Shown: positions 66-31,416 of the stretch, in pieces
Numbering within the stretch: position 1 is the first letter of the stretch
Layout: each line of letters begins with the position of its first letter
From: a virus
Taxonomy: Duplodnaviria > Caudoviricetes
Direction: 5' to 3' (one strand)
IMG/VR virus record: IMGVR_UViG_3300012940_000075
Location: 1-31,529 of that record
DNA: 31,529 nucleotides
The notes under the pieces: model-generated
The model's input: only the letters and a program-made list of their open reading frames with translations
Databases searched by the model: none
What the model was told of the DNA's origin: nothing
Position numbers and translations under genes: made by a program

Positions 66-123
66 TGGTGCCCGCTCCCGGACTCGAACCGGGATGGAGG
101 TCGCCCTCCGAGGGATTTTAAGT
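66..123 (-). pseudogene. 3' half of the disrupted host tRNA-Leu(UAA)
   Basis: Minus strand reads ACTTAAAATCCCT-CGGAGGGCGACCTCC(long variable arm)-ATCCCGGTTCGAGTCCGGG-AGCGGGC-A-CCA; AGCGGGC pairs with GCCCGCT at 31441-31447. Confidence 0.95.
114..123. repeat. att core, left junction (GATTTTAAGT)
   Basis: Identical to 31407-31416; covers the 7-nt anticodon loop, a typical tyrosine-integrase crossover site. Confidence 0.92.
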
Positions 124-253
124 ACTTTTTCCTGTGATGCTCAGTTAGACGGTTCTTCCTTTTCGCAAATGTAGCTTTTCTGCCCGTTGTAGGGTTGGTT
201 CAAAAAGAAAAGTTTGTGTTTGTAAAAAGAAAGAAAAGAGCAAAAGTATTTTG

Positions 254-282
254 TTGCTAAAAGTACCGTCAACTGTTATAAT
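254..282 (+). promoter_or_regulatory. sigma70 promoter of the integrase
   Basis: TTGCTA (254-259) - 17 bp - TATAAT (277-282); RBS AAGGAG at 302-307. Confidence 0.75.
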
Positions 283-316
283 AAGGCATGTTTAACAGGA
301 AAAGGAGCCTTAAAAT

Positions 317-1438
317 ATGGTGGATACGGGTTTGTTAGCGAAGATGGCGGAAGTTGCTGCCGCTACTGGTATGCGGGTGGTGTTGGACGGAGACAAGGTG
401 TTGCTAGAGCCTGTGCAATCTTCTGCCAATATGCCTGCTGTTGTTTCTCCTGCGCCTGCCAATGTCCAAGTGTTGCCACCTGAGCAGCCGCGTATGGCTG
501 GGGGTGCTTCATCCATTACATATATTGACCAGAGAGCGGAGCGTCAGTTGCCAAAGTTTACCGTTGGCGATGCGATTCGCAAATACATCAACACTCGTCC
601 AGAGAAAACCGATAAGCAGAAGAAAAACAAACACGATTATGGTTTGGTTTTAAAACTGTTTTGGAAGGAGTATGAGGATTGGGATTTGTTAGGGGACGAG
701 TTTAAAGATTTGGTTGTGGATAGGTGTTCAGTTGAGCACAAATCCAACTTTAAGACTTCTTGTGCATATCTCCGTGCAGGTATCAATCTGCTGTTAAAGC
801 CTCGCAATTTGGATCATCTCAATCCTTTCCGCCATGTCACATTGCGTAGGAATACCGTTAAAGTGCGCTCCTACACAAATGCAGAGATTAAAAAGATATG
901 GCGTGAGCTTGAGGCGATGATAAAGCTGTATGATACGCCTCGTTACCGCCGCATGTATATTGGGTGCTTGCTGTTTAAGTTCCTGCTTCTTACAGGAGTA
1001 CGGACGCATGAGGCGCATGCTGCAAAGTGGGAGCATGTCGATTATGAGGATTGCTCCTTGCAGCTACACACCACCAAAGGCGACAAATTCCGCACTGTTA
1101 GCCTCAATGGGGAAGCCATTGCACTGCTCAAGCACCTGCAAGCGTCGTATCCGCATTCTGAGCACATATTCCCGCCCAAGCTTGTGTCTGCTAACACAAC
1201 GCGGAACGTGTATCAGAACCTCTCAGAGCGCACGGGCATAGCTATTACCCGTCATGATGCTCGCAAGCTGTATGGCCAGATCCTGTTACAAACTGGCGCA
1301 AGCTTGCGTGATGTGCAGTTAGAGTTGGGCCATTCCAACATATCGGTTACTGCTCAATACTACTCCCATCTTAACAATGAGCATCGTAGGGAAACTTCCA
1401 ACAAAGTTGGGGATTTCTATAAAAAAGCAGTAGCGTAG
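317..1438 (+). CDS. int: Tyrosine recombinase / phage integrase
   Basis: Catalytic motifs TGVRTHE (R), TTKGDK (K), HDAR (HxxR), LGHS and QYYSH (Y); adjacent to the att core. Confidence 0.95.
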   Translation: MVDTGLLAKMAEVAAATGMRVVLDGDKVLLEPVQSSANMPAVVSPAPANVQVLPPEQPRMAGGASSITYIDQRAERQLPKFTVGDAIRKYINTRPEKTDKQKKNKHDYGLVLKLFWKEYEDWDLLGDEFKDLVVDRCSVEHKSNFKTSCAYLRAGINLLLKPRNLDHLNPFRHVTLRRNTVKVRSYTNAEIKKIWRELEAMIKLYDTPRYRRMYIGCLLFKFLLLTGVRTHEAHAAKWEHVDYEDCSLQLHTTKGDKFRTVSLNGEAIALLKHLQASYPHSEHIFPPKLVSANTTRNVYQNLSERTGIAITRHDARKLYGQILLQTGASLRDVQLELGHSNISVTAQYYSHLNNEHRRETSNKVGDFYKKAVA

Positions 1439-1525
1439 CGGTCTGCTGTTTTTGGAATATTAACGTATTGTTTTCTTTGGAGATATTTTTCTATTTTGCA
1501 TAGAAAGTGGATCAATGTACTGCGC

Positions 1526-1566
1526 CAAAAGAATGCCGTATCAGGAATATCTGGTACGGCATTTTG
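1526..1566. terminator. Bidirectional intrinsic terminator between int and the virion operon
   Basis: Stem GAATGCCGTATCAG / CTGGTACGGCATTT with A- and T-rich flanks, between convergent genes. Confidence 0.8.
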
Positions 1567-1568
1567 TC

Positions 1569-1883
1569 TTATAGGAGTTTATCAACGAGTCGATTGATGT
1601 TGTCGTTGATGGTAGCCACTTGTGTGGACAAGTGTTTAACTTCTGTCTCCAATACAAGCAGCCTATCATGAACGTCTGTGTTCTTGTCGTTTTGTTCTTT
1701 AAACTGGTGTTGTAGTTTAGCTTTCATTTCTTTTATATCTTCCTCGTTCTTTTCGCCTTGCTCAGCCCATTTGATAAACTTCCTGATATGTTTTAGGAGG
1801 TAGGCGATGGATTTCCATGCAGCAACCAATCCAACTATTGCTGAGCCTACTAAACCTAGTAGTTTAAACCATATCCAATCCAC
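1569..1883 (-). CDS. Small membrane protein with coiled coil (holin-like)
   Basis: N-terminal TM helix followed by a heptad coiled coil; last gene of the virion operon. Confidence 0.55.
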   Translation of the reverse strand: MDWIWFKLLGLVGSAIVGLVAAWKSIAYLLKHIRKFIKWAEQGEKNEEDIKEMKAKLQHQFKEQNDKNTDVHDRLLVLETEVKHLSTQVATINDNINRLVDKLL

Positions 1884-1898
1884 CCAATGCCATCTCCA

Positions 1899-2432
1899 TT
1901 ATATTGCCGTGCAGCCGCCAGTGTAGTTGGCGCTCGCTACAATTGTTCCTGCACCGTTTCTTATCTCTACCCTCACGGTTCCAGATATGCTGCTCACACC
2001 AGATGACCATGAAACGAGCCTATTGCTCGACAAGCTCAGCCATGTGTTTAAAGCGTCAACTTCTGTTGGCGCTGTACCGGATATATGGGTAAAACGTATA
2101 TAGTAGTTGTCCTCAGATGCAGCCGCATTTGGGATAATCCAATCTGTGCCGCTGTTGATCTGCTGATACGTTAAGTATGGACCACCGGGTTCAGGAAATA
2201 TGTAGCTTGCGGTGTAAACCCTGCCATTTGACCTAAACTCGAATCCGCCAATTGCGTAGGCGATATGGGTATTGTTGGTGAGGTGCCAAGTCGCGTTTTG
2301 GTATACTAACCGCCATGTGCTACCAACCTTCACATAGGTTTTTTGTATTTCGCGCCATGTGCTACCAACCTTCACATATATCTTTTTTAAAGGGCGCCAT
2401 GTGCTGCCAACTTTAACATAGGTATCTGCCAT
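1899..2432 (-). CDS. Putative fibre-tip / receptor-binding protein
   Basis: Three YVKVGSTWR repeats at 15-aa period, then a beta-rich domain; follows the tail fibre gene; GGAG RBS. Confidence 0.65.
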   Translation of the reverse strand: MADTYVKVGSTWRPLKKIYVKVGSTWREIQKTYVKVGSTWRLVYQNATWHLTNNTHIAYAIGGFEFRSNGRVYTASYIFPEPGGPYLTYQQINSGTDWIIPNAAASEDNYYIRFTHISGTAPTEVDALNTWLSLSSNRLVSWSSGVSSISGTVRVEIRNGAGTIVASANYTGGCTAI

Positions 2433-2447
2433 CCATTTGCGCCTCCA

Positions 2448-3551
2448 TTAGTATTGGTACCAAATGTCACCATCGGAACCGCCAGATGGGCCGCTTGTTG
2501 ATACTGTCTTCCTAGTGCCTGCTCGTCCTGTAATGTTGCGGGCATATCCATCACCCATATGCTGGGTCACATTGGATGAGGAAATACGTGCATTGGAAAA
2601 GGTGCCAGACGTAATATTGCTAGCAGAGTGGTTATGGCTCGATGCAGCAAATGCAGAGGCATGGTTGCCGTCTAACAGGTCTGCATCTATGCCTGAGCCT
2701 GAGCCATCTACGGTAAGCAGTAGGGAACGAATCTCAGAAGCGGTTTGATCGCCCGTAGCGCCGCTCTCAATGCCATTGAGCTTGGTTTTGTCACTACTGG
2801 ACATAAACCCGTTTGCGCCTGTTGTCGCTACGCTGTGGGTGTGATCGGATGTGGCGAACGCGGATGCATGGTTGCCATCTAGTAAGTCTGCATCTAAGCC
2901 GGAACCTGAGCCATCTACAGTCTTGATCTTTGTTAGAAGAGCAGAAGCTGTAGTTGCGTCGCTTACAGACGTGTCGATATATATCTTTGTTGCTGCGTCT
3001 TGGTCATTGGTTGGATCGGAAACATCTGTAATAGCATTGCTGTTCATGCTTAATGAACCGCCGAATCCAACATCACCAACTACCTCTAGATCGCCACTAA
3101 TAGCTGCATCATTGCCAACGATTAGAGATGTAAACAAACCACCTTGTGTATTAAGTAGCTGCCACTCTAGATTGTTGTAATATACCTCGACGACCGTTCC
3201 GCTAGGAATGTTTGTTACTGCTGTTCCGTCGCTATATTTGATAGGATATGCAGGAAACGAATTAATCTTTAGAGTAGCTTCGTTGGATGAAGTATGGTTT
3301 GTTTTGAAGCTAATGCGTTCGCCTTCATACAACTCGCTAAAGTTTGTGTAGGCTAGTGTATATTCGCCATCAGCGCCACTTGATGTTTTAACCGCATTGA
3401 TACGATTCCAAAACCGTTTGCAGGCGGCCATCAACTCTCTAACAGTATTGTTTACTTGAGACGGAAGCCAACCTTCTGGTGCGCCGTTAGGTGGAATTTG
3501 CGTATTGTTACTAGCATTCTCTGATACTTGGTTTGAACCTAAATCTGCCAT
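2448..3551 (-). CDS. Tail fibre protein
   Basis: Ser/Gly/Thr-rich; two VDGSGSG(L/I)DADLLDGNHASAFA repeats, a DPTNDQDAATKIYID motif and C-terminal GSDGDIWYQY, all typical of phage fibres. Confidence 0.85.
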   Translation of the reverse strand: MADLGSNQVSENASNNTQIPPNGAPEGWLPSQVNNTVRELMAACKRFWNRINAVKTSSGADGEYTLAYTNFSELYEGERISFKTNHTSSNEATLKINSFPAYPIKYSDGTAVTNIPSGTVVEVYYNNLEWQLLNTQGGLFTSLIVGNDAAISGDLEVVGDVGFGGSLSMNSNAITDVSDPTNDQDAATKIYIDTSVSDATTASALLTKIKTVDGSGSGLDADLLDGNHASAFATSDHTHSVATTGANGFMSSSDKTKLNGIESGATGDQTASEIRSLLLTVDGSGSGIDADLLDGNHASAFAASSHNHSASNITSGTFSNARISSSNVTQHMGDGYARNITGRAGTRKTVSTSGPSGGSDGDIWYQY

Positions 3552-3567: not shown

Positions 3568-4437
3568 TTACTCTAATACCAATCTGCTTGGCTTCCTAGT
3601 TGTCGTGCTTACTGTATCGTCTTCATCATCCGGGCCAACAAGGGTTAGTCTTGGTCCTTTGTTTGGCTGCGAACTAGATTCGCTCTCATCGTCAACAGAC
3701 GCACCAACTGCTAATCCGCCTGCAAAAGCTGGAACTGCCTCAGGAACATAGTTCAACCCTTTACCAACCGCCGTTATAGCTACTGGAGCAACCGCTGCTG
3801 GTAATCCAAATCCAGTACTTCCAATCCCCATTGCTGTTGGCACAGAAGGAATCTGCTTCAACCTGTCATAGATGATATCGCGTGGGACTTTTAGGCTTGG
3901 AAACACGCGGCTAATAGCGTTACCCATTTCGCCTACTAGCTGGTCTGTCTTTGGAATGACCTTGTTAGCTATTGCTTGGGTTCCTCGTGCAGCAACACCA
4001 AACGCTGGGCCAGTAGCTGCACCCCACATCATAGCTTCGTTCGTGTCGCCGCCAGTTCCTTGCGCCAGCAATCCGCTGCCATAAGCGCCAGCAGCGGCAT
4101 CACGTACCAATTGGGCTGTAACACCAGTGGCTTTAGCGAGGGCAGGGGCAATACCCATACCAACAGCTACGTTTCCGCCTAAGCCAATACCTTGGCCCAT
4201 CTTAGCGGCAAGGGGTTGCTTCTCGTTCAAGTCGTCGAAGCGCTCACCTTGTGGCAGGAGTCCGAATGTGAAGGCATCGCCAATGTTGCGCAACATTGTC
4301 TCGTTTGCTTCGGCTACAGAAGGTTGCGCCTCTAGCTCTGTTTGAGCAGTGGACTGCAATAGCTCCTTATACCGTTCCCAAAATCCCTTCTTCTCTGCCA
4401 TTCTTGTTTCTCTTACTGTATCTTCCCACGTTTCCAA
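3568..4437 (-). CDS. Putative internal virion / ejection protein
   Basis: Gly/Ala-rich hydrophobic helices, DAFTFGL motif; lies between the nozzle and fibre genes. Confidence 0.6.
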   Translation of the reverse strand: METWEDTVRETRMAEKKGFWERYKELLQSTAQTELEAQPSVAEANETMLRNIGDAFTFGLLPQGERFDDLNEKQPLAAKMGQGIGLGGNVAVGMGIAPALAKATGVTAQLVRDAAAGAYGSGLLAQGTGGDTNEAMMWGAATGPAFGVAARGTQAIANKVIPKTDQLVGEMGNAISRVFPSLKVPRDIIYDRLKQIPSVPTAMGIGSTGFGLPAAVAPVAITAVGKGLNYVPEAVPAFAGGLAVGASVDDESESSSQPNKGPRLTLVGPDDEDDTVSTTTRKPSRLVLE

Positions 4438-5387
4438 CTTCCGCTTTCTTGGTCGAAATATTGAACATTGCTATTTGCGAAGCGTCGTTTAATGTCGTTC
4501 ACATATTTGTTGTAAAGATTATATTTTGTATCGAAATTCGTTGCTCCAAGACCGCCAGCTTCATCAATCTTCTTGATGGTCGTCTCTGTAGGTGTTCCGT
4601 CTGCTTTTCGATACATTGGTATGATCGAAGTTGTTAGGACGGTATCAATGTCCTGTAGGTCTTTGGTGCCGAAATCGTTGCCAGATAAAAATGTCCTGTC
4701 CAACCAACTTGCTGGTGCTCTAAAGAGTGGGTTGTCAGGGTCAGGGCCAGGCCAGTTCTTGCCGTTGTCAGTACGCTCGTCTAAGCGGTCCTTAAGGTCC
4801 AATGCCATATTGATGCTGTCAGGGTTATATACACCCTGATCTATGGTTGCTTGGAAGTCCTTGCGACGTTCAGCTATTTCTTTGTTCTTAATTTCATTCT
4901 CTTGTGCAACAGCCTTTGGTACGCCAGTCGTAGGTAAGAAGCGAAGGTCTTGAGGCACCTCTATACGAGTGGTTTTGGACTCGTCGTAGAAGTACTCTTT
5001 CTCATCCTGTGATGGTGATGGGCTAGCTGTTGTAGCAGGCGCAGTATTAGGTACTGGTGCCATGTCATATGCGCCGGATGCTACACCAGCAGGGGCGCCG
5101 AACTCGTCCGCATATTTTCGCTCTTCAAAGGTTTGTTGCTGACGTTGTAAATCTAGCTGTTCCTGTCTATACGCTTGTTCAGCAGCATATTTCTCTTGCT
5201 GAAAATTGTAATCGCGTATGTCTTGTTGAGCTTTGAGCAAGGATGCCATTTGCTGCATCTCAATCTGCCGCTCTTGCATTCTATTAGCTAACTCCAATCG
5301 GTTTAGCTCAAGGATTTGTCTAAAGTAGGATGAGCGTGGGCTTTCCTCTGAACTGCGATCACCAAATAAGTTGATACGAACTGCCAT
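4413..5387 (-). CDS. Putative internal virion / ejection protein
   Basis: Gln-rich coiled-coil N-terminus; synteny. Confidence 0.55.
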   Translation of the reverse strand: MAVRINLFGDRSSEESPRSSYFRQILELNRLELANRMQERQIEMQQMASLLKAQQDIRDYNFQQEKYAAEQAYRQEQLDLQRQQQTFEERKYADEFGAPAGVASGAYDMAPVPNTAPATTASPSPSQDEKEYFYDESKTTRIEVPQDLRFLPTTGVPKAVAQENEIKNKEIAERRKDFQATIDQGVYNPDSINMALDLKDRLDERTDNGKNWPGPDPDNPLFRAPASWLDRTFLSGNDFGTKDLQDIDTVLTTSIIPMYRKADGTPTETTIKKIDEAGGLGATNFDTKYNLYNKYVNDIKRRFANSNVQYFDQESGSWKRGKIQ

Positions 5388-5388
5388 C

Positions 5389-5826
5389 TTACCTACGGCC
5401 TCCTGATATTGTGAGAAGGATGCTGTTCACCATGTCATCAGAAGCACCGCCTTTTCTAAGTGTCTCAGCGACAAATTGTGCATATGCTGGGTCTACAGAT
5501 CGGTTAGCTGTCTGTGCTTGTTTATCCAGTACGTCTAAAGCACGCTTCTCAATGTCCTTGTCGTAGACGCGCTTCTCTTTAGCTGTGTTGGCTGCATCTT
5601 CCATGTCCAATGCATTGCCTAAACCAGCTAGCAAACCAAATGGGCCTGCAATAAGAGCAGGAGCAAGAGTGCCAACTACCTGCTTGATACGTAGGTTGCG
5701 TGTCTCACTAGGTGTAAGCTTTGCATCTTCTGCACTAGCGAGTGGCGCATTCTTTGGTTGTGAAGTGGGTAATCCTAGAAGCCCATTAGCGCCGCTGTTT
5801 ATTAAACTTTCGAATGAAAATGCCAT
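5389..5826 (-). CDS. Putative small internal virion protein
   Basis: GGAG RBS, one Gly-rich hydrophobic segment, synteny. Confidence 0.55.
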   Translation of the reverse strand: MAFSFESLINSGANGLLGLPTSQPKNAPLASAEDAKLTPSETRNLRIKQVVGTLAPALIAGPFGLLAGLGNALDMEDAANTAKEKRVYDKDIEKRALDVLDKQAQTANRSVDPAYAQFVAETLRKGGASDDMVNSILLTISGGRR

Positions 5827-5840
5827 TTTTGTTTCTCCAT

Positions 5841-7226
5841 TTATCCTATACTAAACCCAGCACTTTTGGACTTGGTTGTTCCTTGCGTATTTGAACTTGC
5901 ATATGGGGAAGCTGCTGACAGGATTGCAGCTAAGCGGCTTAAACGCTCAAAGTCTGCATTCTGCCCGAAGTCAAATTGCTCTCTGTTCGCGTCTATAATC
6001 GCTTGGGCTTGGTCAGCTTGTATCTGTCCAGTTGCTAGCAAGTTCGCTAGGTTAGTTTGCAAGTTGGCGACTTGGCTGTTGGCCACATCGCTTGCCAATG
6101 CTGTACCGCTGGAAATGCTGTCTAATAGTGCTTGGGCATTGCCTGAACTTAATTGTCTGCTGGATTGCTCACCACTAAGGGCACTTGTTAGAGCATCTAG
6201 GTTCAAGCCTTGTGTGTTCTGACGCGCACTCTCTAATGCACTAGCTGCTGATAGTCGGCGAGACTGGTCAGCATCAAAGGCGTTCTGTTGCAGCTCGTCT
6301 GTTGCAAGATCCAAGTCGGCGATAGACTGTCCGGCGGTTAAGCGTCTTGCTAGCTCACTGTCCTTTGCCTGCTGTCTAAGCTGCGAAGTGCTCAAGTCCG
6401 TATCTAGTAGGGATTGGGCTGCTGCTAGACGCTGTTGCTGCTGGTTCAACGCATTCTTATAAACGAGGTCAGCAACACCAGATGTTAGCTGGCCTGCTGC
6501 ACCTTCCTGTGCTCGGTTGATAGCGTTTGTTAGACCGCTTGAACCATATCGGCCAGCAGCCGCGAATTGGGACTGAACGCCGGGTAATACCTCTCTGTTG
6601 AAGGCTTGGGTGACGTTCTTCGTTAGAGAGTCGATAGCACCTTGTAGGATGGGATCATTCGCAAAGTCTGTGTTGCTTGCGATGCTCTCCAAGTATCCGC
6701 GGGACCGTTCCGTATCTAAGGTTGGATCGTAGCTATTGCCTTGGGCAAAATCTTCCAGATATGAGCGGCCAGCATTGTTGAAGTCCACTGGTGAACTTGT
6801 CCCACTAGCTAGCTCCTGTAAGCGCTGTATGCCTGTTTGATCGCCGCTAGCAGCATTAAAATTCTTGAGAGCGTTGATAATCTCTTCTTCTGTGGCGCTG
6901 CTGCCGATAAGGCTACGTAACAACGCCTGTTCATCTGTTGTCCCTGCTGATAGCTCGCCTGCCCGTGTACCTGCTGCATCTAGAGCTGGGTTCCCACCGC
7001 TTGCCATTTGCATTGCTAAGTCTATAGCGGCTTGCTGGTTGGGTGATATATCTGCAACCTGCTGCCCTGGGTAATACTCCGCGTTGCCTGAGGAGTCTCC
7101 AAAGAGCCTTGTCGCTTCTGCGAATAGTTGCTCAAGGCCCGGTGCTGCTGGACCGTAAGGATTTGAAGTAGTTGTTTGATCTACCTTCTGCTTGCTCTTA
7201 CTGCCTGTTAACCCGAATAGTGCCAT
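5841..7226 (-). CDS. DNA transfer / pilot (ejection) protein
   Basis: N-terminal G-S-K..TTTSNPY, YYPGQQVA, Ala/Gln-rich helices and FAAAGRYGSS, typical of podovirus ejection proteins. Confidence 0.75.
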   Translation of the reverse strand: MALFGLTGSKSKQKVDQTTTSNPYGPAAPGLEQLFAEATRLFGDSSGNAEYYPGQQVADISPNQQAAIDLAMQMASGGNPALDAAGTRAGELSAGTTDEQALLRSLIGSSATEEEIINALKNFNAASGDQTGIQRLQELASGTSSPVDFNNAGRSYLEDFAQGNSYDPTLDTERSRGYLESIASNTDFANDPILQGAIDSLTKNVTQAFNREVLPGVQSQFAAAGRYGSSGLTNAINRAQEGAAGQLTSGVADLVYKNALNQQQQRLAAAQSLLDTDLSTSQLRQQAKDSELARRLTAGQSIADLDLATDELQQNAFDADQSRRLSAASALESARQNTQGLNLDALTSALSGEQSSRQLSSGNAQALLDSISSGTALASDVANSQVANLQTNLANLLATGQIQADQAQAIIDANREQFDFGQNADFERLSRLAAILSAASPYASSNTQGTTKSKSAGFSIG

Positions 7227-7257
7227 CTCATATCGATCTCCATTGTCTCACAGCTAT

Positions 7258-23259: not shown

Positions 23260-23276
23260 TACTGCTTAGCCTCCGC

Positions 23277-23555: not shown

Positions 23556-23612
23556 AGTTGTTTGCGACTCCTTTATAGAGTGCGGGAGACCCATTCTCCC
23601 GCCGCATACAAC

Positions 23613-23620: not shown

Positions 23621-23630
23621 AAAGGCGCAT

Positions 23631-24794
23631 CTATTTTTTTGTTAGAGCATCCTTTGCGTCCGTCATATCTGCCTCGTTCAAATGTTTGTCTTTAACCTTC
23701 ACTTTCCCAAGAACGTAAGCAAAAAAGTCTGCATACTCCTCAATCCCATCGTCATAGGACTTATTCCAAAACGCGCGGGCTTCTTTTGGATCAAACTTCC
23801 CATACGTGTTGAAAACGACAAAACGACGATCATTTTCAGCAAACGTCAACGGATCATGACGGTCAGTGAACATCCATACGCTGGTCCAATTGCGCAAGTT
23901 CTCTGTTACAGTCGAACGTGGCATTCTAACCTTATAGTATGGGTTGCCAATTACACTCTTAAGCTTATCTAGCAACATCTGTTTGTTTTTCACATATCCT
24001 TTCTGTGTTGGGCCTACGGCGTTCACTTGATAGGCGCTGATATCATCAAAATACATCATCAAGGAATTGGACGTTCCTATGGCCGTCTCCTTCATCAATG
24101 TTTGTGGTGTTTCTGAACTGATATTCGACTCGCCTATGATATGGCGCATTATGTTTATCAATGAACCTTTGCCTGATCCTTCTGGCCCGATCATCAAAAA
24201 GCCTAACCGATGATGGTGCTTTGCTAGTTCATGCCGCTGCACAATCTTTGCAAGAGTGTAGATAAACTGGCGAACTGCTGGATATTGTTCCCAATGTCTT
24301 GGCTGCCTAACCCGCACACCTGTCCAATAGAATATTGCATCCTTCAACCAAGCGTTCATGCGTCTGGCCTTTTCAGCACCCATTGGAGGCTTGCGAGTTG
24401 GGTAGGTGAACGGTTTGTAGGTGTTCATAACCAACCCATTGTCATTGAAAAGAGCTTTCGCATACGGGTTATAGCCTGACCGCCCAATGTATGAGATTGG
24501 TGTCTGCCGAATGAGCCGCGCCGCTTGCTTGGTATTCTTTACCGTTTTCAGTTCTTTATGATGTGCCTCAAAAAACAGATGCACAACAACATCAAAGTTC
24601 TGATGTGTGCTTTTCTCACCGTCGAAATATAGGTAGTTGCTTTTCTGATATTTGTAGATATGGCGTTTGACAATCTCCATGTCCAATTTTATTGGGTCGT
24701 CTGCTTCTTCCTTAGCTTGCTGGTCTTCATAGATATTGTCCCATTCTGCCATTAGCTGCTCTAGCTGCTTTCTAGCTTTGCGTGGTCTGCCCAT
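23631..24794 (-). CDS. SF3 helicase / NTPase (DUF5906-like) without an evident primase domain
   Basis: Walker A GPEGSGKGS, Walker B MMYFDD, motif C-like WMFTD, NDRRFVV arginine finger. Confidence 0.85.
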   Translation of the reverse strand: MGRPRKARKQLEQLMAEWDNIYEDQQAKEEADDPIKLDMEIVKRHIYKYQKSNYLYFDGEKSTHQNFDVVVHLFFEAHHKELKTVKNTKQAARLIRQTPISYIGRSGYNPYAKALFNDNGLVMNTYKPFTYPTRKPPMGAEKARRMNAWLKDAIFYWTGVRVRQPRHWEQYPAVRQFIYTLAKIVQRHELAKHHHRLGFLMIGPEGSGKGSLINIMRHIIGESNISSETPQTLMKETAIGTSNSLMMYFDDISAYQVNAVGPTQKGYVKNKQMLLDKLKSVIGNPYYKVRMPRSTVTENLRNWTSVWMFTDRHDPLTFAENDRRFVVFNTYGKFDPKEARAFWNKSYDDGIEEYADFFAYVLGKVKVKDKHLNEADMTDAKDALTKK

Positions 24795-24836
24795 AGTGTG
24801 TTCTCCCTTTTTTTGTATTTATTTTATCCTTTTCTG

Positions 24837-24865
24837 TTGCCTTATCCTTTCTTTTGATATATAAG
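24837..24865 (+). promoter_or_regulatory. Putative sigma70 promoter
   Basis: TTGCCT - 17 bp - TATAAG upstream of the ORF at 24946. Confidence 0.5.
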
Positions 24866-24945
24866 GTTTCTCGTGCGGTGCCCATAGTAGCATCGCCTAA
24901 CTACAATAGGATATTTTATGACAATTTAAACATAGGAGTTACATC

Positions 24946-25353
24946 ATGCATAAAATTTCGAATATCGTATTTCTTGGTAAGAACATTGTGTTCAATACCA
25001 CTGAAATTGAACCAGATGAGGTTTGGTCTGTTATCCAAGACGGCTATGAAATTAGTTACGGCGCAGAACGTTACACTTGCATTAAAGCGATCTGTGACGG
25101 TTTTTTAGAGTGGTGTGAAAAAACCAAGGTGGAGCCAGAATTAGTTGATCTCAAAGGGTATATGGCAAACTTTGAAGATAACTACGTTTCTGTATATATT
25201 GACCATACAGTTATTTCTGTTGAAGACAAACTGCTTGTAAAAGTCTGCAACGAAAAAAATGTTAGTGCTGGTGATAAGCAAGCTGTATCAGAGGCAATTG
25301 CTATCTGCGTTGCAAAGGTGTTCGCTAAGCAACAATCCGCCGTTATCTTCTAA
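24946..25353 (+). CDS. Hypothetical protein
   Basis: AGGAG RBS, 135 aa, divergent from the helicase gene. Confidence 0.75.
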   Translation: MHKISNIVFLGKNIVFNTTEIEPDEVWSVIQDGYEISYGAERYTCIKAICDGFLEWCEKTKVEPELVDLKGYMANFEDNYVSVYIDHTVISVEDKLLVKVCNEKNVSAGDKQAVSEAIAICVAKVFAKQQSAVIF

Positions 25354-25364
25354 ATTTCCGTTGA

Positions 25365-25379
25365 GAACAGAATGAGAAC
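25365..25379 (+). promoter_or_regulatory. Alphaproteobacterial LexA (SOS) box
   Basis: GAAC-AGAATGA-GAAC matches GAAC-N7-GAAC and is intergenic. Confidence 0.75.
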
Positions 25380-25483
25380 ATGGGAGCATGAGCCCAAGAA
25401 TGGCCTTAGGTGGTCCATTGAGCGGGTATTGGGTTAACCCAGGGTCATAGGCCCAATACCCCGAGTTCAAAGGACATGCTCCC

Positions 25484-25720
25484 ATGCGTCTCTCAGTGAT
25501 GATACGGCACTGCTACTACGTGCAGGTCATATGCGACCCATGCAATCGCTCGACTACGTTCGATCCGCGTGAGCTGCTGGTCATGTTTGGGGATCATGAC
25601 CTAAACACCCTTCGTAAACGTTTCAAATGTAAGGTATGTGGCCGAAAAATGAGCCGCTACAGCAACGGCTATTCCCAAGAGCTAGACCCAAGGATACCGA
25701 AGAAGGGGGATAAGACATGA
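25484..25720 (+). CDS. Zinc-ribbon protein
   Basis: CDPC ... CKVC; AAGGA RBS. Confidence 0.75.
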   Translation: MRLSVMIRHCYYVQVICDPCNRSTTFDPRELLVMFGDHDLNTLRKRFKCKVCGRKMSRYSNGYSQELDPRIPKKGDKT

Positions 25721-26151
25721 AGAGACTCGCATCATGCATATTAGCTGGAGCTATGCTTGGGGCGCCTGTTTCTAAGCCGGCGCTGGCTGCTGATGCAATG
25801 CCTGACATATTCGACAGGTGTGTTGGGGACGCTACTAGGACTGGCTATCAGAGCATCCCATATACAGAGTTTCGTGCTGCTGACAATGCATCACAGGAAC
25901 TGGTCGTGATGGCCTGGCTGCAAGGTGTGATGACAGGGATTGGGCTGGTAGACAAGAATTGTGCTCAACAGCTTGCTACTTGCCTAGCAGGACCAGCAGG
26001 AAACATCTTGACCAAGATGATGGAACGGGTAGCAGAGCACTTTATAGATAGGTGGGATGAACCTAACACCACTGCATATTTCATGTTCGCTGGCATTGTT
26101 GATCCATGCTTGCGCGGATGGGTACCAGCTACTGAGGAAGACATAAAGTGA
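25717..26151 (+). CDS. Exported cysteine-containing protein (Rap1a-immunity-like)
   Basis: Signal peptide ending ALA/AA; WLQGVMTG..C..C..PC helical pattern; ATGA-coupled to the upstream gene. Confidence 0.55.
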   Translation: MKRLASCILAGAMLGAPVSKPALAADAMPDIFDRCVGDATRTGYQSIPYTEFRAADNASQELVVMAWLQGVMTGIGLVDKNCAQQLATCLAGPAGNILTKMMERVAEHFIDRWDEPNTTAYFMFAGIVDPCLRGWVPATEEDIK

Positions 26152-26160
26152 AGGCGGGTG

Positions 26161-26331
26161 CTACTCGTCACTGACCGTTGTTATATTATCCATTGGATAA
26201 TAGCATTCGGAACATATTACACGGCCATCGCTATATAGTCTGAAATCTATACTGCCACACTCGCACTGAAAGACGAATGGACCTTCTTCAACTTTCTTAT
26301 TGCGTTTTTTAAAATCTACTACTTCTCCCAT
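26161..26331 (-). CDS. 56-aa zinc-ribbon protein (MGEVVDFKK...CECG...CSEC), absent from the ORF track
   Basis: Translated by hand; GGAGG RBS. Confidence 0.7.
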   Translation of the reverse strand: MGEVVDFKKRNKKVEEGPFVFQCECGSIDFRLYSDGRVICSECYYPMDNITTVSDE

Positions 26332-26480
26332 CCATTATTTCCTCCAAACCACTTCTTGTTTAATTCTCTAAGAGATGCAGGCTTTGTTTCATCGTAAGTT
26401 CTCAAAGCCCACTTCACTTCGTGGAAATATTTTTTCCTGTCCACCAAAAACAATATTTCATACAGAACATCGCCGTTCAT
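26319..26480 (-). CDS. 53-aa hypothetical protein (MNGDVLYEILF...), absent from the ORF track
   Basis: Translated by hand; fills the operon gap. Confidence 0.55.
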   Translation of the reverse strand: MNGDVLYEILFLVDRKKYFHEVKWALRTYDETKPASLRELNKKWFGGNNGWEK

Positions 26481-26502
26481 CCATCATTTCCCCACTAAAA
26501 CC

Positions 26503-26823
26503 CTACACATAGGATTCAAACTCTCTATCAAATTTGATTTTAAAGGCTAAGAAGTCTTCTTCTAATATAAATGTGAAACATACAAACGGGCAGCAATCGC
26601 CATCAATATATGGGTCTTCATGATATTCGCGTCTGTCGAACCATAACCGCCACCAACCATTATTGGCTTGATGTCCTTCATGGTTAAACCAAATGTTATT
26701 GGCATCCTTATAATCGAACATCCAAAACCCTTTGCAGTTATCATCTAACCATGCAGCGTGTTCGGCGAATTCTGGCCCCATAACATCACTTCTGTATTTC
26801 TTATGTGCTTCGTTCATCATCAT
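26503..26823 (-). CDS. Hypothetical phage protein
   Basis: WLDDNCKGFW...FILEEDFLAFKIKF; coupled to the upstream gene. Confidence 0.75.
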   Translation of the reverse strand: MMMNEAHKKYRSDVMGPEFAEHAAWLDDNCKGFWMFDYKDANNIWFNHEGHQANNGWWRLWFDRREYHEDPYIDGDCCPFVCFTFILEEDFLAFKIKFDREFESYV

Positions 26824-27059
26824 TTCCCCCTTGCTGGTGCCTTCTTTGTAGGTCTCTTGGAGGATGCAGCTTTCAATGCCTCTATCTCATTGCGCAATGC
26901 CTCAAGCTCTTTGATGGCTGCTTGAAGCTCAATGGCTAGCATTCTGACGGATGGTATATGGAAGTTGCTATATACCTTCGGTGATGACCAATTGCGCAGG
27001 TCTTTCATATCTGCATTGGCTAAGTCTTCTAGTGTTTCAAATGTTTTTTCTTCTTTCAT
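26820..27059 (-). CDS. Hypothetical coiled-coil protein
   Basis: AGGAGGT RBS. Confidence 0.7.
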   Translation of the reverse strand: MKEEKTFETLEDLANADMKDLRNWSSPKVYSNFHIPSVRMLAIELQAAIKELEALRNEIEALKAASSKRPTKKAPARGK

Positions 27060-27092
27060 CCATTGTTACCTCCTAAGCTCATCAAGAAGGTT

Positions 27093-27527
27093 TTAAACCT
27101 CCTTCTTAACTTCTTCCTTCAATTGTTTCATTTCAGATTCTCTTCTTTTTTCATAGGCGAGATATTGTCTGAACTCTTTAATGTCGCATTCTCTATTGAA
27201 AACAATCTTATGATATGGCGTAACTTGCATGCCATACTGCTTTGGTCTGCCCAACCAATACGGGTAGTTTTTATCCACAAGTCTAAAGTGGATGCCGCTG
27301 TCATAGCACCAATGAGCCAAATCGCTCTTTTTAAACTCCTTCCTGTCTTCACTTTGTTTCTGTTTATACTCTGGCGTGTATGATACACTTATTTCATAAT
27401 ATTTTTGCAATACGTCATTGTATCTCTTAGCCCTATCTTCTTCAAACTTCTTAACCAATTCTTCTGTTGGGCATGGATCATTATCTTCATCCATATATTT
27501 CTTCCAAAAGTTCCAAATTGCCATCAC
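27093..27527 (-). CDS. Hypothetical phage protein
   Basis: AGGAGGT RBS; WC...F..E.D...F pattern similar to the 26503 gene. Confidence 0.7.
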   Translation of the reverse strand: MMAIWNFWKKYMDEDNDPCPTEELVKKFEEDRAKRYNDVLQKYYEISVSYTPEYKQKQSEDRKEFKKSDLAHWCYDSGIHFRLVDKNYPYWLGRPKQYGMQVTPYHKIVFNRECDIKEFRQYLAYEKRRESEMKQLKEEVKKEV

Positions 27528-27841
27528 TCGTTACCTCCTTCATTTACGGTAACATCCAAGCAATAGTATTGGGCATCGACATATTCCACATTGATATCTA
27601 ACCGGCTCACTAGATCGGGCGAGCAGGCTTCTTCAATCCATTGTGAAAAGCGAACTAGTACTTCTGGCATAACATTAGGATTGATGCCTACCACCATTAT
27701 GACGTTGCCATCCAACAAATGTGCTGTTGCACTGTTATTGATGATAGAGACGAAGTTCTGTTGCAGGCTATTTACAACAATGTCTGCTTCTGATGGGTAT
27801 TCTACTTTTTGATATGTCGTGGTGTGGGCGTCTTCTGACAT
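27524..27841 (-). CDS. Hypothetical phage protein
   Basis: Likely start MSEDA with AAGGAGG RBS after an ATAAATA box. Confidence 0.7.
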   Translation of the reverse strand: MSEDAHTTTYQKVEYPSEADIVVNSLQQNFVSIINNSATAHLLDGNVIMVVGINPNVMPEVLVRFSQWIEEACSPDLVSRLDINVEYVDAQYYCLDVTVNEGGNE

Positions 27842-27906
27842 CTGCCTTCCTCCTTGTAGTGTGTTCATTCGTATTTATTATTGGAGGCAGATATTCTTTC
27901 GATATG

Positions 27907-28011
27907 AAAAAAATGGCGGTTGGAAATGAGCAACCAACCGCCAAGTCGTGTTTAAGGAAATAACAATGTATATTAGGCGCATCAGATACTGGTGTCTGGA
28001 TGATGCAGCCC
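27907..28011 (-). ncRNA. Candidate small RNA (~105 nt)
   Basis: TATAAATA at 28017-28024; 5' hairpin GGGCTGCATCA/TGATGCGCCT; terminator TGGCGGTTGG/CCAACCGCCA + T7. Confidence 0.6.
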
Positions 28012-28023
28012 AATCTTATTTAT

Positions 28024-28134
28024 AAAAAAAGGTAGGATGCCGGAACTCTGACATCCTACCTTGAAGGTATTCTATATTTTTTTTACCAATGGCTACATTG
28101 GACATGATCCATCTGCATAATATATCTAGATCAT
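28024..28134 (-). ncRNA. Candidate small RNA (~110 nt)
   Basis: CTAAATA at 28140-28146; hairpins ATGATCTA/TGGATCAT and CCAATG/CATTGG; terminator AAGGTAGGATG/CATCCTACCTT + T-run. Confidence 0.55.
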
Positions 28135-28155
28135 ATTCCTATTTAGTCCATCAGT

Positions 28156-28512
28156 TTAAAAACATGTAGACATCCTTCTCATGTGTGCAACAAACATGCT
28201 GATATGCTCATTGACGGAAGCATAGTCTTCTTCTGCATGGGCTAAGGATGTCTGTATGTGCATTATGCCTGCCTTAAAGCATATAGCGTATTCGAAGCGC
28301 TGGATGATGACAGGGATGGGTTGGGTATGCTCACCAGCCTTAGCCTGCTCTACGACCCTCAGAATGTGATCTCTGACATCATTGTCGTTATGATGGCGAG
28401 CTATGTTCTGTAGAGCGCCAAGCATAGTAGGAGTTTGAAGGTTTGGCTCATTGTGCAGGCTGAACGTCACCTGCAATGGGGTGGTGATCGATTTGGGGAA
28501 TATAATAGCCAT
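28156..28512 (-). CDS. Hypothetical protein
   Basis: Start MAIIF with AAAGGAG RBS. Confidence 0.7.
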   Translation of the reverse strand: MAIIFPKSITTPLQVTFSLHNEPNLQTPTMLGALQNIARHHNDNDVRDHILRVVEQAKAGEHTQPIPVIIQRFEYAICFKAGIMHIQTSLAHAEEDYASVNEHISMFVAHMRRMSTCF

Positions 28513-28587
28513 AGTAGCTCCTTTGGTCATGATCGTAGGAGCCTATTGCCGTCGTTCTGTCTGTCGATCTGTCGTTATGGGGGTATT

Positions 28588-28980
28588 ATGAAGCTACGTC
28601 AGAAGGTCGTTATATGGTTGATCGATGAAGGGAAGATGCTGGACAAAGCCGCTATCTGGCTAACCAACAATACTAAAGCCGTCTTTGAGATAGTTGCAGC
28701 ATGTGGTGCCATTGCCGTTATCCATCTCGCCTATGAAGTTACCGAACCTAAAAACATAGTGTTCGAATGGCTAGCCTTCATCCTCTATATGCTTCTAATA
28801 CTGCAAATCCTATATCAATGGCTTTCCAACTACATCATACCATTGTTTAAAACTAGGAATGTTGCCTATAAGGTATTTGGCGCTGCAATGTTCGTTCTAT
28901 CGATAACCATAGTTCCATGGGGTCTTGCATACCTGATAAGCAGCCTAGTTTTGGCCTTCATCAATGTTCAGCAGCTATAG
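28588..28980 (+). CDS. Multi-pass membrane protein (130 aa)
   Basis: Three to four hydrophobic helices; GGGGGT RBS before ATG 28588. Confidence 0.7.
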   Translation: MKLRQKVVIWLIDEGKMLDKAAIWLTNNTKAVFEIVAACGAIAVIHLAYEVTEPKNIVFEWLAFILYMLLILQILYQWLSNYIIPLFKTRNVAYKVFGAAMFVLSITIVPWGLAYLISSLVLAFINVQQL

Positions 28981-29552
28981 ATTCTGTTACCGACGCTCGG
29001 CAACTTCAAAGAAATTAACTATATTGGTTTACCCTTAGATTCTGTTACCAACTATCGGGCTCATCATATGGTATCAGACTTCCGTATTATAAACATAACA
29101 TGGTCGTTCTTATCGTCGATTGGAAAAAGACAGAAATATGAACTTTTTTCATATAAAGACAGATAAACCCGCACATACCTAACTGCATGGCGGCTCGTAT
29201 AGTCTAACACTAGTCTTTCCTATCGTTTTTTGTATTGGCCAAGATGAAGGTTATGCCAATGCGCACTTTTTGGGCTGCGTCTCCCTGCTACTACACGGAA
29301 CATTTAAGGTAAGCTCCAACCTTACAGTAGATTCTTGTTCTAACATTATGGCGATCCCGTAGGGCCTGTTTAGCGAGTGTCTACTATTCTTATTTATACA
29401 TTCGGCTCAGAAACCCGCGCAATCGTGCTATATTTGGGTTCACTATCGGGCTGGTCTAAGGTGGTCGCTCCCCTACATTATAATGATACTTTCTTCCTTT
29501 TCTATGTCGATACTTTTCTGACAGAATAGCGCAGATATATATGGTTTCTGTC

Positions 29553-29647
29553 AAAAAAAAGAATACCGCCAACATTGCATTGACGGTACTCCTGTAAACA
29601 GCCATGTAAAGAATGCTTTTAGGCAGGTGTGATATTAATTGGCTGTC
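29553..29647 (-). ncRNA. Candidate small RNA (~95 nt)
   Basis: CTAAATA at 29653-29659; 5' stem ACAGCCA/TGGCTGT; terminator GAGTACCGTCAA/TTGGCGGTATTC + T8. Confidence 0.55.
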
Positions 29648-30498
29648 AATCGTATTTAGCAAGAAACTTTAGATCGACATATATTTTCGTTGGTGTCTGC
29701 GGAATTTTGTATGTTTATCGGGCAGGTCACATTCCCCTAGACCCCTACATTCTAACTATACAGAAACTATGTCAATATGTCGATACCATTACACACAAAA
29801 TATACTATATATTTTGGTATTTTTTATGCCTAAACCATTGATATCATTGATGCGTAGGTTTGGCTAGAATGCTGCTATATCTTGTTGTTCTGGTTTTTCC
29901 ATATTGTGGCATTCTTACAACAGAATGAAGAATCCTTTTTACCAGAATGTCAAAGGTTTCTGCGATATTTTTTAGGTTGGACGGGCATTTTCTTGTTGAC
30001 ATGGCCTGAGCTTGCAGGTCTTTCCATCATATGATGTTAATGGTGTCATAATGTCATCAAGATAGCATCATTATCATCATAGCATCATCATTGATATCAT
30101 TATGCTTCCATCAACCTATCTCCACCCGTTATCACAATGCTCAACTTTCATTGTGTCCTTAGGGTTTTCATCATATCGCCAATATATCGTTCATTGGCCA
30201 TATATCATTCTTTCTTGTTGTTTCTTGCGATATCGGTTTGAACGATAGTTTATATATCAGTCTCTTTCTTCTATTCGATAGTTTCTTCTATATCTGCTTT
30301 CGTTCATATAGATATCTTATTCGTTCTATATTGTTTCTGTACATTATCGTTTTTATATCGTTCTTATCGTATGTCTTGTTATAGATATATAGAATATTGT
30401 TCTTTGCTGTATTGTTTGGCGAATAAATATTTCGTAGCTCGTTATCGAGTTTCTGTGTTTCTTTGTTTTTCAGTTCTTATTGGAGGGTTTTGTGGCGG

Positions 30499-30897
30499 AT
30501 GTCAGAAGAAGAAGTATATATGAAGACTGTTCGTTCCGAGTGGGAAGCTCGTTCATTGTCGGAGATTGTAGAGCCGCCGTTAAATGGTTGGCGGGTTAAT
30601 ATTCGGACAGGTGAGCGTCGTCGTATTCGATTTCGGAGACCGTCAGAACCTAAAAAGCAAGCAGTACCAGCGCCAGATGTTTGTTCAAAGCGTAGGAAGC
30701 GTATGAAGAAGGAACGAAAGAGGGAGGAAGCATCATCCTTGCCGAGTGGTGGTGATCGTCGCAAAAAGCTGTCTGCTGATGATGTTCGTTATATTCGTTC
30801 ATCAGGCAAACGTGTTTCAGATTTGGCGGTGGAATTAGGGGTGTCTCGTCCTACGATCTACCATGTTCTGAACCGTAGGATATACCGCAATATATAA
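30499..30897 (+). CDS. Basic HTH DNA-binding protein
   Basis: C-terminal KLSADDVRYIR...VSDLAVELGVSRPTIYHVL helix-turn-helix; start uncertain. Confidence 0.75.
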   Translation: MSEEEVYMKTVRSEWEARSLSEIVEPPLNGWRVNIRTGERRRIRFRRPSEPKKQAVPAPDVCSKRRKRMKKERKREEASSLPSGGDRRKKLSADDVRYIRSSGKRVSDLAVELGVSRPTIYHVLNRRIYRNI

Positions 30898-30900
30898 TGG

Positions 30901-30986
30901 TGGTACGAGCGGCGGGACTCGAACCCGCACGGCTTTTCGCCTTCAGATTTTAAGTCTGATGTGTCTACCAGTTCCACCACGCTCGC
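30901..30986 (-). tRNA. Element-encoded intact tRNA-Leu(UAA)
   Basis: GCGAGCG acceptor stem, D arm, TCAGA-CT-TAA-AA-TCTGA, variable arm GGC-GAAAA-GCC, GCGGGTTCGAGTCCCGC, ACCA end. Confidence 0.97.
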
Positions 30987-30987
30987 A

Positions 30988-31275
30988 TTAGTCGTCATCT
31001 AACGTTTTAAAGAAGCTGTCGCCAGCCTTGCGCACTCGTTCGCGTCTTTCTCGTTCTGTTTTTTGATCCACAGTTTCAAGCGGAGTGACATTCGGTAGGT
31101 TAGAAATACCGTGTGCTGCTGTATGTGCCTTTGTGGTGTTATCTTTTTTAAACCAAGCTTCTTGGAAATCGTCCCAAGTAACATCGTTTCGCAGGAGTAC
31201 TTTCAGGTCATTGAACCTGTCTCGTGCAATACGAAGTTGCCTTTGTGGCACATTATATATGTTGCTGTAGCCCAT
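30988..31275 (-). CDS. Hypothetical protein (95 aa) between the att site and the replacement tRNA
   Basis: Likely start MGYSN with a GGGGAA RBS-like sequence; stop codon 1 nt before the tRNA 5' end. Confidence 0.65.
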   Translation of the reverse strand: MGYSNIYNVPQRQLRIARDRFNDLKVLLRNDVTWDDFQEAWFKKDNTTKAHTAAHGISNLPNVTPLETVDQKTERERRERVRKAGDSFFKTLDDD

Positions 31276-31406
31276 CGTTCCCCAGCCTAGCACATGTCAA
31301 ATGTTGTCGCGCAGTGCTGTCTCTCAAAGACCAATAGTATTTTGTGCTTTGCTTGAGCGGAGGCTTGGCCGTCAATGGGTTAGCTTCTGCCATTGACACC
31401 GCAAAA

Positions 31407-31416
31407 GATTTTAAGT
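31407..31416. repeat. att core, right junction (GATTTTAAGT)
   Basis: Identical to 114-123. Confidence 0.92.

Follow-up and report, generated by a model that had tools for sequence, protein, structure and literature searches.

A podovirus-type prophage with T4-late-type promoter words before its virion genes: a possible satellite virus read by the late sigma factor of a helper phage

How can a prophage that encodes its own virion be switched on, if its virion genes stand behind promoter words for which no reader is recognised on the prophage itself? This question is raised by the viral record IMGVR_UViG_3300012940_000075, a metagenome contig of 31,529 nt analysed in its entirety (hereafter the window), which carries a 31-kb att-bounded podovirus prophage (positions 114-31416) within a host tRNA-Leu(UAA) gene. 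An initial annotation of the window had proposed that this element makes its own particles and depends on a helper phage for transcription, replication and lysis. In our judgement the chances are evenly balanced that the element is an intact podovirus prophage acting as a satellite virus, which would be switched on by the late sigma factor of a helper. Transcription by such a factor would be the best single explanation of gene blocks led by TAAATA boxes without a detectable sigma factor.

The T4-late-type promoters described in the initial annotation were borne out by their position and not by their raw number. The count of TAAATA was not above chance (24 against 22.3; 42 of 100 shuffles reached it), and that of ATAAATA was modestly above it (15 against 6.2; 1 of 100 shuffles). 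TAAATA was found, however, 8-110 nt upstream of 10 of the 44 curated genes against a shuffle mean of 2.6, and ATAAATA upstream of 9 of 44 against a mean of 0.84; none of 500 shuffles reached either value. ATAAAT ranked first among all upstream hexamers, and an automatic rerun gave upstream TAAATA at 10 of 42 genes against 2.6 (0 of 150 shuffles). Among four structural relatives of the element, phiM5, MW202710 and ppBeUSDA76-2 showed no upstream TAAATA site and MW202879 showed one.

Fourteen box sites were picked by position, of which 13 are intergenic or partly so and one lies in the end of the portal gene; the intergenic CTAAATA at 29653 was counted with the 10 other sites. At the 14 chosen sites TAAATA is preceded by A in 12 and by C in two, four sites read TATAAATA, and C or G follows the box in 11. 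No conserved -35 element was found at these sites, the best consensus match being 2-4 of 6 with spacers of 14-19. The boxes lead the virion, packaging and helicase blocks and a gene for a helix-turn-helix (HTH) protein, whereas the integrase gene has instead an ordinary -35 with an extended -10 (254-282, plus strand; TTGCTA-17-TATAAT), which, as read from the sequence, would be a host sigma70-type promoter. Genes, and the boxes before them, lie on the minus strand unless the plus strand is stated. One TAAATA box (7255-7260) stands 34 nt before the ejection-protein block, a perfect TATAAATA box (12557-12564) stands before the scaffold-capsid block, and another TAAATA box (12955-12960) lies in the 3' end of the portal gene, before the frame at 12595-12921. 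A further TATAAATA box (29391-29398, minus strand) lies in a stretch poor in open reading frames (ORFs) at 28980-30460. Terminator-like hairpins precede several boxes (17464, 20909, 28022). In 16000-31529, a generic scan for sigma70 promoters did not rise above chance (29 against 32).

Three boxes outside the virion genes (20889-20910, 24795-24822 and 27857-27878) carry a common downstream leader word of 9 nt, a possible operator or translational control site. A search for the shared leader motif returned three AT-rich loci with no protein in common.

According to the available text of PMC1524935, TATAAATA, NATAAATA and CTAAATA are variants of T4-like late promoters, and that of PMC5259590 gives ATAAATA as the late motif of CBB, a jumbo phage without detected homologs of gp33 and gp45. 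The likeness to the late promoters of T4 and of RaK2/CBB/PA5oct-type phages, as these are described in the accessible parts of PMC1524935, PMC7892883 and PMC5259590, extends to the same -10-only word, its variants, its place before virion genes and its occurrence once per short unit. The boxes of the window differ in that they lie in a 31-kb prophage without detectable gp55, gp33 or gp45, and stand also before helicase and HTH genes.

The initial annotation had offered autonomy through an own gp55-like gene as the alternative to a helper. Six-frame searches with three sigma profiles revealed no such gene. T4 gp55, phrog_234 and phrog_12791 gave no six-frame match in the window, and the two PHROG profiles recovered their positive controls in Atu_ph07 (E 6e-118) and Phosso (E 2e-91). 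A hidden Markov model (HMM) built from 10 gp55 sequences gave a best E of 0.88 over 777 frames of the window and recovered three held-out gp55s at E 3e-34 to 5e-55; a 4-sequence HMM of jumbo-type sigma factors gave a best E of 3.2 in the window. Since the profiles were without a match and the positive controls worked, a recognisable own gp55 was rejected. Likewise gp33 was not found in the PHROG scans, the only searches that covered it.

The class of the putative reader was approached through a word of 15 nt, consisting of the box, five bases and ATG, of which the window has two copies (17012 and 23619, minus strand). In the copy at 16998-17012, the ATG starts the gene preceding that of the terminase large subunit (TerL). 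The word had about 1000 matches in IMG/VR against about 210 for a control of the same composition, both totals being estimated, from 8 and 38 of 64 parts. At 82 of 114 usable loci, against 2 of 117 for the control, its ATG closely followed an in-frame stop and opened a frame of 80 codons or more, and because of this the 15-mer appears to be a promoter with a leader-free start. Completeness was then looked up for the 15-mer loci on contigs of at least 25 kb among 80 listed (25 records) and for the first such controls (23 records). The implied genome was at least 280 kb in 19 of the 25 and in 5 of the 23, respectively (Fisher p 4e-4). The records with the 15-mer would thus seem to be mostly uncultured jumbo phages of about 350 kb resembling RaK2 and PA5oct.

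The 305-aa sigma factor of one of these records is closest to those of the PA5oct group, Sinorhizobium phage Phosso and Agrobacterium phage Atu_ph07, and this kinship indicates that jumbo phages of such a class do exist in soil alphaproteobacteria. In the stretch of Phosso analysed, genes for portal, scaffold and baseplate have boxes before them (7 of 41 genes against 2.1, significant). The guess of a T4-like or jumbo helper in the initial annotation agrees with these results, in that the closest promoter word points to jumbo phages. The helper proposed here is a phage class and not one named phage, and the extended motif points to neither Atu_ph07 nor Phosso in particular. The available text of PMC9163698 and PMC7318152 gives no late motif for PA5oct. 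The SU10 major capsid protein (MCP) and Gp23 families were found in none of the 25 records and in no control, which is uninformative. In the T4-like Caulobacter phage Cr30, an annotated integrase gene adjoins the gp55 gene.

The 15-mer is also carried by a second provirus (G006) of 32.5 kb, rated 97% complete, which encodes a serine-type integrase, a lambda-like head, siphovirus tail genes and a lysozyme. Its boxes stand before 10 of 30 genes against 2.5 expected (0 of 150 shuffles). The sigma profiles gave no gp55 match in it, no HTH_3 candidate was seen, and it has no protein in common with the window at E 1e-3; no cultured close relative was found, the best portal match being 29%. Since the same wiring occurs in this unrelated virion lineage, one outside reader is favoured, which explains both elements more easily than two hidden factors.

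The life cycle of the element could then be drawn as follows. Integration at a 10-nt core splits the host tRNA-Leu(UAA), and the element brings a tRNA of the same anticodon. The integrase gene has a host-type promoter sequence, whereas the HTH gene next to attR and the blocks for virion, packaging and helicase stand behind the -10-only TAAATA boxes. If these boxes are unread by the host sigma70, a classical switch would be unnecessary, and the lysogen would express little beyond the integrase, the tRNA and a few plus-strand genes. An infecting T4-type phage, most likely a RaK2/PA5oct-like jumbo phage, would supply a late sigma factor of the gp55 family. This factor would turn on the HTH gene, perhaps an excisionase, and the helicase, packaging and virion genes. 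DNA synthesis would be carried out by the primase and polymerase of the host or the helper, and release by the endolysin of the helper.

Several observations weigh against a satellite read by a helper. No helper phage was identified. The upstream enrichment was not significant in the stretches of Atu_ph07 (10 of 53 genes against 7.6) and Cr30 (3 of 62 against 3.9), and the genome-wide count of ATAAATA[CG] was close to that of the reversed control in Atu_ph07 (50 against 43) and Phosso (27 against 28). A gp55 match was found in only 2 of the 25 records with the 15-mer, which are fragments, and equally in 2 of the 23 controls. The start-site spacing is weak, since an A at the sixth or seventh base after the box was found at 13 of the 14 chosen sites (p 0.002 against base composition) and also at 7 of the 10 others. 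The absences on which the reading depends rest on sequence profiles, in a window with about 20 orphan genes and with a structure model of a regulator candidate whose predicted local distance difference test (pLDDT) score is 49. The HTH gene matches HTH_3 at E 0.004, comparable to the repressor-like gene of phiM5 at E 0.001, both under the cut-off, and the element carries its own helicase domain and a holin-like gene. Furthermore, activated late transcription in T4 requires a clamp loaded on the DNA, and gp55 alone gives basal transcription, as described in the available text of PMC7892883. A prophage in the chromosome may lack such a loaded clamp, although a helper of the CBB type may bypass the requirement.

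It is more tentative, and in our estimate falls somewhat short of an even chance, that the two elements belong to a recurring kind of bacterial provirophage, with its own virion and no working repressor switch, wired to a T4-type or jumbo late sigma factor in at least two unrelated lineages, and possibly cutting the yield of the helper.

The replication and lysis genes bear on the same question from another side. DNA polymerase, primase-polymerase (prim-pol), single-stranded DNA-binding protein (SSB), sliding clamp, endolysin and spanin were found neither with Pfam and PHROG in 56 ORFs, nor with NCBIfam in 30 of those, nor with PHROG in 116 further stop-to-stop frames of the ORF-poor parts, nor by phmmer, for which 36 named genes from phiM5, Cr30 and three further relatives served as queries. 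The replication and lysis genes of phiM5 gave no phmmer match at E <0.04, its prim-pol touching only the helicase gene, at E 0.1. A lysin or M15 peptidase is annotated in all four structural relatives, and phiM5 has in addition a primase-polymerase and a polymerase. The absence of polymerase, primase, SSB, sliding clamp and endolysin stated in the initial annotation therefore stood in all of these searches.

Two genes of these functions had been missed, however. The product of 23631-24794, behind a box at 24816-24821, contains a predicted superfamily 3 (SF3)-type helicase/ATPase domain without a prim-pol part. Its residues 194-385 match residues 135-311 of the 415 of a PDB chain titled 'Primase' (6k9c/6k9e, E 1e-5), so that the match ends about 100 residues before the chain does; phrog_1829 (E 3e-7) spans the C-terminal part only. 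We take these PDB chains to be the C-terminal part of the polymerase of phage NrS-1. A holin-like protein with two transmembrane segments is encoded at 17803-18030 (phrog_14936, E 3e-23), with no endolysin gene beside it; its homolog in phage AXL1 is a 'putative holin' adjoining endolysin and spanins.

Many temperate phages replicate with the host replisome. Because of this habit, and because the element has its own helicase, the missing polymerase, primase and SSB are a weak argument when taken alone, and helper-dependent replication is the weakest part of the reading proposed in the initial annotation. The absence of a CI/Cro switch held in so far as no match exceeded the cut-off, but the HTH gene at 30499-30897 (plus strand) is a possible repressor, and the idea of an element silent without a repressor was for that reason not borne out. 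The reading in the initial annotation is on the whole supported in part.

The HTH gene lies behind a box at 30423-30429 and encodes a basic protein with a C-terminal HTH (HTH_7, E 1e-4). This HTH is closest to the C-terminal HTH of HNH endonucleases, and its HTH_3 (Cro/CI) value lies, like that of the c2-like gene of phiM5, under the cut-off. The protein could be an excisionase, a repressor or an activator, as far as can be judged from its sequence.

Of the other explanations, that of an autonomous temperate phage survives best, although we regard it as unlikely. Here a sigma factor or activator encoded by an orphan gene, too diverged for the profiles, would read TAAATA; the HTH protein would be a repressor or excisionase; the own helicase would work with the host DnaG and Pol III, and the holin with an unrecognised lysin. 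The orphans, about 20 in number, the HTH_3 match under the cut-off, the helicase domain and the holin-like gene all leave room for such a phage, and an early factor might come from the box-free plus-strand genes (19346, 24946, 25484, 25717). The three sigma profiles, whose positive controls worked, nevertheless find nothing, and the two orphans of the best size for a regulator stand behind boxes themselves. With G006 wired in the same way and without a common protein, two separate hidden factors would be needed. In addition, no lysin was found, against an annotated lysin or M15 peptidase in each of the four relatives.

These two orphan genes (19768-20871; 164 and 177 aa; boxes at 21019-21024 and 20904-20909) have no relatives. 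The ESM Atlas gave no usable match for either. Two single-sequence structure models made for the window are poor (pLDDT 33 and 49). Fold searches with the second, that of a regulator candidate, gave a best Z of 6.0, no hit at E <0.001 and no sigma match, which is uninformative in view of the low confidence of the model. For the 177-aa orphan and the helicase, no relative was found in a set of 5.8 billion sequences within the length range searched.

It is improbable that the element is a defective remnant, that is, a once autonomous phage which lost its gp55-like sigma factor, lysin and prim-pol, so that the boxes would be relics and induction by a jumbo phage accidental. A helicase that lacks, relative to its PDB match, the prim-pol part at the N-terminus and about 100 residues at the C-terminus would suit such decay, as would a holin without an adjoining endolysin, two ORF-poor stretches of 1.3-1.5 kb and a CheckV completeness of 32%. 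The integrase and all virion genes, however, are open and of full length, and no pseudogene traces of the missing genes were seen in the 116 frames. The helicase gene looks complete, with a box and a ribosome site to itself and the next box immediately after its end. Filled and empty integration sites coexist in soil metagenome run X1, and boxes of this kind are not in use in any of the four structural relatives.

Least probable of all, and in our view quite doubtful, is a reading of the boxes as atypical -10 elements by the RNA polymerase of the host, with sigma70 and CarD or with an alternative sigma, and convergence on the T4 word. TAAATA does resemble a -10 hexamer, alphaproteobacterial promoters often lack the last T of the -10 and leader-free starts fit such hosts. 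The boxes have no -35 element, however, and sites of this kind are missing from phiM5 and ppBeUSDA76-2, the relatives from alphaproteobacteria. The element's own integrase promoter is built in the ordinary -35/-10 way, and a repressor would be needed at more than 10 scattered sites, among which no shared operator was seen except the 9-nt leader word at three boxes.

The integration site supports an intact, resident prophage. The left junction carries the 3' half of the host tRNA-Leu(UAA) (66-123, minus strand; recognised by its T-arm/acceptor sequence), in whose anticodon arm lies the 10-nt attL core (114-123). The attR core (31407-31416) is followed by the 5' half of the host tRNA (31407-31448, minus strand). 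A 27-nt T-arm/acceptor stretch is found exactly in 53 GTDB loci, mostly titled alphaproteobacteria, and the 5' half shows 0 mismatches to several alphaproteobacterial tRNAs among GTDB loci. Since both halves match mostly alphaproteobacterial loci, the host is likely a soil alphaproteobacterium. The GC content is 45% in the element and 60% in the flank, of which only 142 nt are available; that of the Phosso stretch is 49% and that of Atu_ph07 37%.

A third copy of the att core, at 30946, lies inside a phage tRNA-Leu(UAA) (30901-30986, minus strand; ARAGORN; Rfam RF00005, 61.5 bits), which would stand in for the split host tRNA. It is the sole tRNA called in the window; the host halves are 31 kb apart and are not rebuilt. 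Tyrosine integrase, a core of about 10 bp, an unrepaired host tRNA and a phage tRNA of the same anticodon are features of tRNA-dependent lysogeny as described in the available text of PMC10865867. The phages described there are those of mycobacteria and other actinobacteria, whereas the present host is likely an alphaproteobacterium and the site tRNA-Leu(UAA). The element accordingly has the sequence-level features of this mode of lysogeny. A 95-aa orphan (30988-31275) lies between attR and the tRNA, and transcription of the replacement tRNA may come from the promoter of the host tRNA. A hairpin was noted at 31340-31400, immediately inward of attR, with the 5' half of the host tRNA on one side and the ORF-tRNA unit on the other. 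TTA codons are frequent in the virion genes (91 of 436 Leu codons).

In run X1, the one public run found to contain the contig and possibly its source, from which all read depths were taken, the depth was 57.8 in the left flank and 47.7-47.9 in the element, which is thus not above the host flank; read depth does not equal the share of cells. A 41-nt unitig with the empty site (depth 17) confirms the att core. No attP joint was found among the assembled X1 sequences, and contigs drop rare variants. By this picture the prophage is not amplified, and both filled and empty sites occur in the population. Although the record is rated 32% complete by CheckV, an assembly fragment was ruled out, since the element is bounded by both att cores and the two halves of the host tRNA, and since its MCP is recorded again on a contig of 260,556 nt.

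The complete set of capsid, portal, terminase and tail genes and the integrase reported in the initial annotation were confirmed by Pfam, PHROG and phmmer matches, and all of these genes are open and full length. The tyrosine integrase is encoded at 317-1438 on the plus strand (PF00589, E 2e-21; phrog_1, E 3.5e-36). The packaging and head genes comprise TerL (15290-16795; phrog_2, E 6e-34; phiM5 TerL, E 7e-57), portal (12908-15049; PF23899, E 2e-98), scaffolding protein (11437-12465; phrog_3927, E 2e-32) and an MCP of the SU10/LUZ24/phiM5 type (10403-11383; PF17236, E 1e-45). No small terminase subunit was identified by homology; a 75-aa orphan (16773-17000), whose ATG closes the 15-mer at 16998-17012 and which is likely leaderless, is a candidate by position only. 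A nozzle/stabilisation-like protein (7566-9047; phrog_3287, E 2e-45) and an SU10 adaptor (9052-9702; PF24175, E 6e-16) follow, and phmmer with phiM5 genes matched this region, 7566-9702, with gp25 (E 1e-5) and gp16 (E 7e-10). Four proteins at 3568-7226 are likely internal or ejection proteins, that at 5841-7226 by its match to phrog_4287 (DNA ejection, E 9e-18) and the remaining three only by their position.

TerL, portal, scaffold, MCP, adaptor and nozzle-like protein are homologous to, and similarly ordered as, those of phiM5/LUZ24/SU10-type podoviruses, with an MCP identity of only 26-31%. The virion module is therefore of this type, and highly divergent. Among 1.84 billion representatives the MCP has one close relative (P0002, 52%, on a contig of 733 kb), the next best by E-value being at about 33%. 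Scans of viral contigs with MCP, helicase, P0002 and TerL found no relatives, nor did a GTDB scan, and a metagenome scan returned only the window's own contig. phiM5 itself has prim-pol, Pol A, helicase, endolysin, holin, spanin and a c2-like gene, and no upstream TAAATA. In comparison with an autonomous podovirus of the phiM5/LUZ24 kind, then, the virion module is present, whereas an own polymerase or primase and an endolysin were not found.

Own encapsidation, one of the marks of a satellite virus, is represented by TerL, portal, scaffold, MCP and adaptor, with the small terminase by position only. The closest known systems are the Streptomyces satellites MulchRoom and MiniFlayer, and not PICI or PLE, which the initial annotation had named. 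According to the available text of PMC10690885, these satellites likewise have own capsid and packaging genes, and MulchRoom has also a tyrosine integrase and an HTH gene. They have no primase, a GC content below that of the host and a presumed large virulent helper, in all of which the element may resemble them. With 15-17 kb they are smaller than the present element, which at 31 kb encodes a complete podovirus tail with its ejection module and a helicase domain, lives in a likely alphaproteobacterial host and bears promoter words that match a class of helper. Helper dependence was shown for MiniFlayer, which could not be purified alone, whereas for the element it is inferred; the same text mentions no promoter mimicry.

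PICI, cf-PICI, PLE and I55 resemble the element in being integrated and wake on helper infection, as the element would, I55 with a jumbo helper (available text of PMC10690885, PMC13595925 and PMC12772148). These and EPIP (PMC12822802, available text) borrow virion parts of the helper, whereas the element encodes its own head and tail; its own head, adaptor, nozzle-like, ejection and fibre genes led us to reject membership in PICI, cf-PICI or PLE. PLE transcription follows the progress of the helper via unknown cues, as stated in the available text of PMC13595925.

The provirophage mavirus offers a functional analogy only, its host being eukaryotic and its capsid fold unrelated. Mavirus has its own capsid, integrates, is woken through late promoters of the helper, and protects its host. 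Virophages (Lavidaviridae) have eukaryotic hosts and a double-jelly-roll capsid; with an SU10-type MCP, a portal, a terminase and a bacterial tRNA site, the element does not belong to them. In the literature searched, which left most subscription papers outside, no prophage or satellite read through the T4-type late sigma of a helper was found. If helper-read transcription is true, it would be a new wake-up route, in which a promoter readable only by an invading virulent phage replaces a damage-sensing repressor. Bacterial satellite viruses would extend from Streptomyces to Gram-negative hosts and to T4-type or jumbo helpers, as a bacterial parallel to provirophages, and some 'cryptic' prophages uninduced by mitomycin C would be alive. 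Promoter words could then serve to pair satellites with helpers in viromes.

The remaining features are minor. The virion block ends in a coiled-coil protein with one transmembrane segment (1569-1883; phrog_1863, E 5e-7; hydropathy), a possible lysis accessory. Two tail fibre-type genes (1899-3551) precede it, that at 2448-3551 matching phrog_32829 (tail fibre, E 4e-21) and that at 1899-2432 only PHROGs of unknown function. The start of the latter holds three tandem 42-nt copies (2311-2436), which encode YVKVGSTWR repeats. Three genes of the fibre or decoration type (21025-23594; phrog_9627, E 2e-37) lie behind a TATAAATA box at 23613-23620 and a 5' hairpin. The best matches of the repetitive fibre-like proteins at 21574-23594 are weak and lie in phiRSL1, PA5oct-group jumbo phages and cyanomyoviruses; these proteins could be decoration or helper-attachment parts.

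An HExxH protein (17009-17428; phrog_87, E 0.049 only) stands behind a CTAAATA box at 17459-17465, after a terminator-like hairpin. Eight small orphan ORFs (26161-28530) follow boxes at 27872-27877, 28017-28024 and 28140-28145. On the plus strand, three genes without a TAAATA box (24946-26151; no family match) encode an orphan, a CxxC-CxxC zinc finger and a signal-peptide-like protein, and are likely expressed in the lysogen. A 114-aa orphan (19346-19690, plus strand) has no database match. A GIY-YIG-like fold for this orphan, guessed by eye from a motif, and a Rap1a-like fold for 25717-26151, also guessed by eye, were dropped when PDB sequence searches gave no support. No evidence was seen for the protection of the host population suggested in the initial annotation, PADLOC giving only four weak matches among 28 proteins (E about 0.001).

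The ORF-poor stretch at 28980-30460 (1.5 kb) is AT-rich, without a credible ORF or an Rfam match, and shows short ATC-rich runs and a strong hairpin near 29559-29593. In the other ORF-poor stretch, of 1.3 kb, two GATAAATAC boxes stand face to face around a structured core of 95 nt (18800-18925; fold z -3.1, 0 of 200 shuffles), which is a candidate for an origin or a regulatory RNA.

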